The notes under the pieces are model-generated. The model saw only the letters and a list, made by a program, of their open reading frames with translations. It was not told the origin of the DNA and made no database searches. Of a stretch of 16,419 bases of DNA, positions 13,437 through 13,870 are shown piece after piece; positions within the stretch are counted from its first letter, which is position 1, and every line of letters starts with the position of its first letter. This DNA is from a virus. The position numbers and the translations under genes are program-made. The DNA is taken from the UHGV virus genome UHGV-0393364. One strand, given 5' to 3'.

Positions 13437-13460
13437 TTAGCCATGGATGGCTAATTTTTG
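13437..13460 (+). terminator. Rho-independent terminator closing the four-gene cassette (hairpin shared with the convergent membrane gene)
   Basis: Perfect inverted repeat TTAGCCAT-gg-ATGGCTAA (13437-13454) followed by TTTTT (13455-13459), 5 nt after the TAA of the 701-aa gene. Confidence 0.6.
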
Positions 13461-13870
13461 TTCTTTGCTCTCATCCATAGGTAAAGAAGGGAAAGAACAA
13501 GACAAAAAACAGAGAATAGATAACCTACCTCATATGGTGCGCCAAAAAAATTAGCTATTGATACGGGCAAAAAAGCTGAAGCGATCAAAAGTGAAAGGCA
13601 AAAAATAAGCCCAGTAATATAGTTTATTAAATTCTTAAATGAGAAACGTTTTGCTTGATTTACGGTCTTAACGAACGATCGCTTAACGACGGATAAAAGC
13701 AAATAGATGGCGACAGTTGCTAATGCCCCTTTCCACCAGTCTGGATATAGTTTTGCGACAATCAGACCAAGGAAAACCATGATGACAGCCTGAGCATTCA
13801 CACCAACCCTCCCTTTAGCTTTGTTTAGAATGGCAATCATCATATATCCAAGACATGGCATTTGGTACAT
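13451..13870 (-). CDS. Small multi-pass inner-membrane protein, 139 aa (function unknown; candidate superinfection-exclusion or immunity-type protein)
   Basis: Product has several hydrophobic helices (MMIAILNKAK...AVIMVFLGLIVAKLY...ALATVAIYLLLSVV...ITGLIFCLSLLIASAFLPVSIANFF...YLFSVFCLVLSLLYLWM) and a basic C-terminus; AT-rich codon usage; convergent with the cassette. Start is ambiguous (Met codons at 13870, 13861, 13843, 13840; no clear SD). Confidence 0.7.
   Translation of the reverse strand: MYQMPCLGYMMIAILNKAKGRVGVNAQAVIMVFLGLIVAKLYPDWWKGALATVAIYLLLSVVKRSFVKTVNQAKRFSFKNLINYITGLIFCLSLLIASAFLPVSIANFFGAPYEVGYLFSVFCLVLSLLYLWMRAKNKN

Follow-up and report, generated by a model that had tools for sequence, protein, structure and literature searches.

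The gene that converges on the gene-16-type ejection protein gene of UHGV-0393364 encodes a 116-residue predicted inner-membrane protein and occupies the slot that sieA holds in phage P22. By sequence comparison, this gene, a SieA homolog and other envelope proteins behave as interchangeable cassettes between conserved start and stop signals. On the analogy with SieA, we give about even credence to the protein being a non-homologous inner-membrane exclusion factor directed at the gp20/gp16 conduit of incoming P22-like phages. The window referred to below is the whole stretch of DNA that was analyzed, 16,419 nucleotides in length, and its features are collected in Table 1.

The initial annotation described a 139-residue protein encoded on the strand opposite to the ejection-protein genes. 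An ATG-to-stop reading frame of that length is present there (13451-13870, minus strand), but the likely coding sequence is its 116-codon portion starting at a GTG. The GTG was taken as the real start on the basis of a Shine-Dalgarno sequence 5-6 nucleotides upstream, of prophage copies whose maximal open reading frame is exactly 116 codons, of distant homologs (115-120 residues) that have an ATG at the position of the GTG and read MNAQ, MNGQ or MNYQ, and of an initiation region nearly identical to that of P22 sieA, AAGGAGGTTGGTGTG. The RefSeq starts giving 129 and 109 residues were dropped in its favor, as was the 139-residue reading, whose 23 extra codons would consequently be leader and promoter DNA. 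This leader is approximately 97% conserved where the slot holds a SieA homolog or a periplasmic protein, and its best sigma-70-like match pairs GTACCA (13868-13863) with TATGAT (13844-13839) across an 18-nucleotide spacer, at only 8 of 12 consensus positions. The 116-codon gene is under purifying selection and is more than a chance open reading frame, with a dN/dS of 0.13 against the Yersinia copy (dS 1.26) and of 0.4-0.5 against closer copies. Across six genera, and at identities as low as 36-38%, its family retains the same length, four predicted helices and 15 invariant columns.

Table 1. Features of the window, of the 116-residue protein and of the other slot occupants. Positions are window coordinates unless residues or a locus are named.
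Feature	Position	Strand	Remarks
isrK	2645-2721	+	Rfam gathering-level match, 63 bits
C4 antisense RNA	2746-2833	+	Rfam gathering-level match, 80 bits
TOPRIM-DUF927 primase	5252-8011
Gene 14 homolog	8774-9235		DUF2824
Gene 7 homolog	9229-9906
Gene 20 homolog	9906-11327
Gene-16-type ejection (DNA transfer) protein	11327-13432	+	701 residues; convergent neighbor in every locus examined
Hairpin	13435-13456	+	9 bp, GGTTAGCCATGGATGGCTAATT then TTTTGTTCTTT; resembles a terminator of the gene 14-7-20-16 operon; 3′ boundary of the cassette
Most likely coding sequence	13451-13801, stop codon included	-	116 residues, GTG start; from sequence, homolog starts and dN/dS
Translation initiation region	13799-13813	-	GGGAGGG 13813-13807, spacer TTGGT, GTG 13801-13799; 5′ boundary of the exchangeable cassette
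Leader and candidate promoter	13802-13870	-	initially read as 23 N-terminal codons; putative promoter activity
AbiD/Abi_2 abortive-infection gene	14628-15650	+	intact; PADLOC AbiD E 8e-58, Pfam Abi_2 E 2e-52
TM1	residues ~5-19 (helix 3-18)		hydropathy, models
First turn, predicted periplasmic	between TM1 and TM2		PDWWKG
TM2	residues ~26-40 (helix 22-50)		hydropathy, models
Basic loop, predicted cytoplasmic	residues 41-57		17 residues, net +6
TM3	residues ~58-86 (helix 55-85)		hydropathy, models
Second turn, predicted periplasmic	between TM3 and TM4		GAPYEVG
TM4	residues ~94-110 (helix 90-115)		hydropathy, models
C-terminal tail			RAKNKN, +3
Slot occupant, 204 residues	L024, L025, L027		SieA homolog (shown for L024)
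Slot occupant, ~115 residues	L034:4995-5390, L052:4953-5339, L043, L049	- (L034, L052)	signal-peptide protein, phrog_2651 (E 1e-22)
Slot occupant, 103 residues	L045:4930-5241, L046, L047	- (L045)	single N-terminal TM helix, phrog_10450 (E 7e-39)

At the other end of the cassette, the stop codon of the minus-strand gene lies within the terminator-like hairpin, which is weak (-10.8 kcal/mol, z -1.8). A terminator shared by the two convergent transcription units had been proposed. The overlap of the hairpin with the stop codon agrees with this proposal, but a T-run follows the hairpin on the plus strand only, so that a bidirectional terminator is only half supported.

The position of the gene corresponds closely to that of sieA. 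As the initial annotation had stated, P22 sieA adjoins the ejection-protein genes. It lies 22 bp past gene 16 on the opposite strand, and the suggested similarity in pairing was borne out by homologs of the present gene: both E. coli and Yersinia have complete P22-like prophages in which a homolog fills the sieA slot. When P22 and window proteins were mapped as a panel onto 23 loci with a homolog, the family gene was in every case convergent with the gene-16 homolog and located 17-43 bp past it. About half of these loci are islands like the window, in which a DUF927 primase gene is followed by genes 14, 7, 20 and 16. The remainder are P22-like prophages, complete or decaying, with scaffold, coat, gp4, gp10, gp26 and genes 14, 7, 20 and 16 upstream and mnt/arc/ant and the tailspike downstream; examples are found in Yersinia enterocolitica, in E. 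coli L3Cip3 at argW and as a CUS-3-like remnant in SF-088. The gp16 of the window is 30% identical to P22 gp16 (609 residues) across roughly its C-terminal 480 residues. Additionally, residues 65-411 of the window protein match phrog_29864, a PHROG labeled "transglycosylase".

The correspondence extends to expression signals in the L3Cip3 prophage, where the 450 bp preceding the family start codon are 99.6% identical to P22 13828-14279, a segment containing the annotated sieA promoter and orf59a. The identity runs through CTAAGGAGGTTGGTGTG and breaks at the first codon past the shared GTG. The region between genes 16 and 9 of P22-like phages has been described as a moron in rapid flux that holds many unrelated genes of unknown function (PMC2629481). 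The 116-codon gene has the properties of this "ant moron", as a non-morphogenetic gene of variable presence between genes 16 and 9, and it is read against the direction of the late operon, from a Shine-Dalgarno sequence and start codon of its own. Slot position alone leaves the function unfixed, since the ant moron also holds mnt, arc, ant and orf59a, which are unrelated to exclusion. Upstream of the gene, a gene-free stretch (13918-14297) contains three to five direct copies of GACCAGTACGCGCGCG-like repeats and a perfect palindrome, AGTTGCAAAA-A-TTTTGCAACT, at 14020-14040. This stretch is kept at 96-99% in L010, L024 and L034, and it could represent an operator, iterons or a packaging signal.

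In order to compare the occupants of the slot, loci were gathered via the C terminus of the gp16 type of the window and the convergent reading frame was read in each. Several unrelated proteins occupy the slot; the 116-residue family was the most frequent among them, and the others are given in Table 1. Exchange between them is precise to the open reading frame. Up to 13452 the window and L024 share 99.8% identity, and from 13798 they share 97%; the interior of the reading frame alone differs. The flanks of L034 are likewise identical to those of the window up to 13450 and from 13796. The three main alleles are distributed over the 5,426 complete E. coli genomes as follows: the 116-residue family is carried by 229 (4.2%, from diverse hosts), the SieA homolog by 103 and the signal-peptide protein by 126.

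The assignment of the L024 allele to SieA rests on an hhalign comparison with the SieA type A profile (93.7%, E 2e-7, with its RYPGEA motif aligned), a match to phrog_7745 "SieA-like" (E 4e-4) and an alignment with the SieA of the E. coli HS prophage HS1 (34% identity, E 5e-12). Experiments have shown that the HS1 protein excludes P22-like phages (PMC10883804). The 103-residue phrog_10450 protein directly follows a P22-type sieA initiation region. The phrog_2651 protein, which carries a cysteine just past its predicted cleavage site (ANAECW) and another at its C terminus, is a further candidate for an exclusion protein. The complete P22-like prophage L010 is 98.8% identical to the window across 12400-14360, and its gp16-plus-slot module is approximately 99-100% identical to that of the island. 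This near-identity indicates that the module moved recently between prophages and islands.

The window itself belongs to a chromosomal island of E. coli; in EcPNK004, an identical copy adjoins tRNA-Thr downstream of proA. This island, which bears an integrase and a primase and sits at the tRNA-Thr (thrW, beside proA), is represented by window positions 5252-13432 and by L001 4846-25786. The EcPNK004 copy carries an integrase, a DUF6387 gene, an HTH regulator, AntA, Ash-family genes and the TOPRIM-DUF927 primase, and no capsid, portal or terminase genes were found in the island. This tRNA-Thr is also the site occupied by prophage HS1 in E. coli HS. Our literature searches found no paper on islands or satellites with P22-type ejection proteins of their own. 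Tentatively, and as an unlikely extension of the allele comparison, the sieA slot might be a swap hot spot for unrelated envelope proteins at which islands match an exclusion gene to the ejection proteins that they themselves encode, barring helper-type phages yet riding their capsids.

Several other features of the island were recorded. The AbiD/Abi_2 gene, intact in the window, is split in the otherwise identical EcPNK004 copy by insertion of the IS21-family element ISEc10. A 146-residue reading frame (15680-16120, minus strand) has relatives of 71-92% identity near the slot in islands L011, L022 and L023, and in EcPNK004 it is followed by a PerC-family regulator. The isrK and C4 matches fall within an Ash-family reading frame (2264-3292) downstream of the AntA antirepressor gene, and they suggest a c4-controlled immunity region of the P1/P7 type.

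The description of the product as a polytopic membrane protein holds as a prediction, with four hydrophobic segments and four helices in both AlphaFold models. These models are of low confidence (pLDDT 57.5 from 8 sequences; 67.5 with a pTM of 0.40 from 12 sequences), and a Foldseek search of the low-confidence model against BFVD gave no significant match (best E 1.1). Nine basic residues sit in the central loop and the C-terminal tail, and the PDWWKG and GAPYEVG turns are either uncharged or acidic. Together with hydropathy, the positive-inside rule predicts from this distribution an inner-membrane topology with both termini inside (N-in/C-in) and the two turns facing the periplasm. In an alignment of 12 family members, the invariant residues concentrate around the first turn (A-K-L-Y-P), and the best-conserved residues are those of the KLYPDWW and GAPYEVG turns. 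A markedly AT-rich codon usage had also been noted. The overall GC content is indeed low (0.38, against 0.47 for the window), but the GC3 of 0.36 is near the values of the neighbors (0.39-0.40 for gp16 and gp20, 0.38 for the Abi gene), and the AT excess is therefore owed mostly to the hydrophobic amino acid composition.

The family is confined to Enterobacterales, where it occurs in E. coli, Salmonella, Edwardsiella, Yersinia, Serratia fonticola and Pluralibacter gergoviae, and every member is annotated as "hypothetical". It was not found in 50,697 deposited phage genomes by megablast or tblastn, and blastn against the same genomes matched solely the upstream P22-like flank and not the reading frame. 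A profile search of 1.8 billion representative proteins returned only seven matches, all within this small family, and a pattern scan of species-representative genomes gave none. Some database members are truncated or frameshifted (P0003, P0015 and P0019). Neither the 116-residue protein nor its distant members showed a significant match in Pfam, NCBIfam, PHROGs or PADLOC, where hits were limited to sub-threshold noise. Clear homology to an unrelated membrane family, which the initial annotation had named as evidence against an exclusion role, was thus not found in these four collections or in BFVD.

The profile comparison with SieA that had been proposed detected no homology to either type A or type B. 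BLASTP of the protein against P22 SieA gave an E value of 0.42, and the 12-member family profile scored 0.3% in hhalign against type A, 0.2% against the L024 protein and 0.08% against the type B protein of HS1. None of six family members matched phrog_7745 at E ≤ 1, in a search that detected the SieA-like L024 control. The FxRYPxEAxxFNK motif that defines the C-terminal part of SieA (PMC10883804) is also missing: the C terminus of the window protein reads ...LLYLWMRAKNKN, RYPxEA occurs in none of the 12 aligned members, and a motif of the RYPxEA type is present in P22 SieA, HS1 SieA and the L024 allele. The Pfam scan was uninformative on this point, as the Pfam-A copy used was without PF26849, which is listed for SieA proteins in precomputed annotations, and P22 SieA itself scored nothing. 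With no profile match, no motif and a different size and topology, and with controls that worked, the protein was rejected as a SieA of type A or B. Judged from sequence, then, the earlier argument from position is substantially and strongly reinforced, and homology to SieA types A and B is refuted.

A role in superinfection exclusion is suggested by allelism with sieA under the same signals, by the predicted membrane location and by the envelope features of the other alleles. SieA, which resides in the inner membrane, is sufficient by itself to stop P22-like phages from injecting their DNA, and phages escape it through alterations of the C-terminal portions of gp16 and gp20; it is carried by only 22 of 66 sequenced P22-like phages (PMC10883804). 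The ejection channel is described as assembled successively from gp7, gp20 and gp16, with gp16 distal and reaching the cytoplasm (PMC13622523). The 116-codon gene would probably have a leftward promoter of its own and be expressed while the prophage or island is resident, as is sieA; the weak consensus match of the promoter upstream of the gene in the window speaks against this step. Its product would then most likely interfere at the inner membrane with the gp20/gp16 conduit of incoming P22-like phages, such that the phage DNA would not enter and the cell would be protected. The conserved KLYPDWW and GAPYEVG turns, predicted to be periplasmic, may act where the incoming conduit arrives.

The membrane character and the location in a prophage moron would also suit a protein that acts at the envelope in phage resistance or lysogenic conversion and has some target besides the P22-type conduit, a possible though somewhat unlikely reading. 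Such a protein might exclude long-tailed phages, as do HK97 gp15 or T4 Imm, mask a host factor of the inner membrane or serve as a membrane effector of abortive infection. The lack of SieA homology fits this explanation, as does the defense-rich neighborhood, in which the AbiD/Abi_2 gene lies on the other strand at a distance of about 830 bp. However, the precise exchange with SieA homologs and the constant, tight linkage to gene 16 argue against it, and the 116-residue protein has no PADLOC match. The prophage loci lack the Abi gene, and in Edwardsiella other genes intervene; functional coupling with it was rejected because the pairing is not conserved. We consider it improbable that the gene is a moron serving host fitness apart from phages, for instance in stress tolerance, colonization or small-molecule handling. 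Many prophage morons are of this kind, and a family that is annotated nowhere and present in E. coli from diverse hosts would be compatible with it. Against it stand the absence of the family away from gene 16 in the loci examined, its alternation, under shared expression signals, with a gene family of proven exclusion activity and the lack of similarity to any transporter or other membrane family.

A part in the cycle of the element itself, either in holin- or antiholin-like timing of lysis or as an aid to its own ejection proteins, appears highly improbable. A small multi-helix membrane protein beside ejection-protein genes would be in place for such a part, and some members match holin families weakly and non-significantly (best E 0.063). 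The gene nevertheless runs opposite to the late operon and, in one prophage, is preceded by the sieA promoter region, which is active in prophages; P22-like prophages have their lysis cassette elsewhere; and the gene is dispensable, its slot being held by other alleles or by none. Membership among the holins fails on the opposite orientation to the late genes, the non-significant matches and the lack of an endolysin adjoining the gene. Finally, a non-functional chance or decaying reading frame is barely credible. The over-extended 139-residue reading and the truncated or frameshifted database members point in that direction, but the low dN/dS against the Yersinia copy, the retained length, helices and invariant columns and the conserved strong Shine-Dalgarno sequence have effectively refuted it already.

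To our knowledge, SieA is the only characterized exclusion system against the DNA-delivery conduit of short-tailed P22-like phages. If the 116-residue protein does act in exclusion, it would provide another, independent means of probing the contact between the gp20/gp16 channel and the inner membrane, and it could explain resistance to P22-like phages in approximately 4% of E. coli strains, which would be relevant to phage typing and therapy. If it has no exclusion activity, the gene would simply add to the uncharacterized moron genes. The start-to-stop exchange of cassettes illustrates cleanly how defense cargo is diversified in prophages and phage-dependent islands.

Among known systems, HK97 gp15, T4 Imm and the Tuc2009/TP-J34 proteins are likewise small membrane proteins of resident elements that are thought to block the DNA-delivery conduit (PMC10883804). 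They are taken to be different families and act on long-tailed or T-even phages. Six members of the 116-residue family gave no PHROG match of any kind at E ≤ 1, a result that pertains to PHROG profiles. The precise swaps seen here fit the flux described for the ant moron between genes 16 and 9 (PMC2629481). Unlike the known ant-moron genes, the 116-residue family is absent from the 50,697 phage genomes and from PHROGs, and it also occurs on islands that have ejection-protein genes but lack capsid genes.

The closest parallel is P22 SieA, which is also a small polytopic predicted inner-membrane protein encoded convergently directly after gene 16, and whose family (phrog_7745) is divided into types A, B and C (PMC10883804). 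The two genes share their initiation sequence and, in the L3Cip3 prophage, the promoter region as well. The proteins differ in size, with 162 to approximately 212 residues in SieA and 116 in the slot protein. SieA has three or four transmembrane helices, with a soluble segment of about 50 residues past the first helix in type A, whereas the 116-residue protein is predicted to have four closely spaced helices joined by short turns and the 17-residue basic loop. In addition, the conserved motif of SieA is cytoplasmic, whereas the conservation in the 116-residue family falls on the predicted periplasmic face. With conservation on opposite faces of the membrane, the mechanism of the 116-residue protein need not equal that of SieA.
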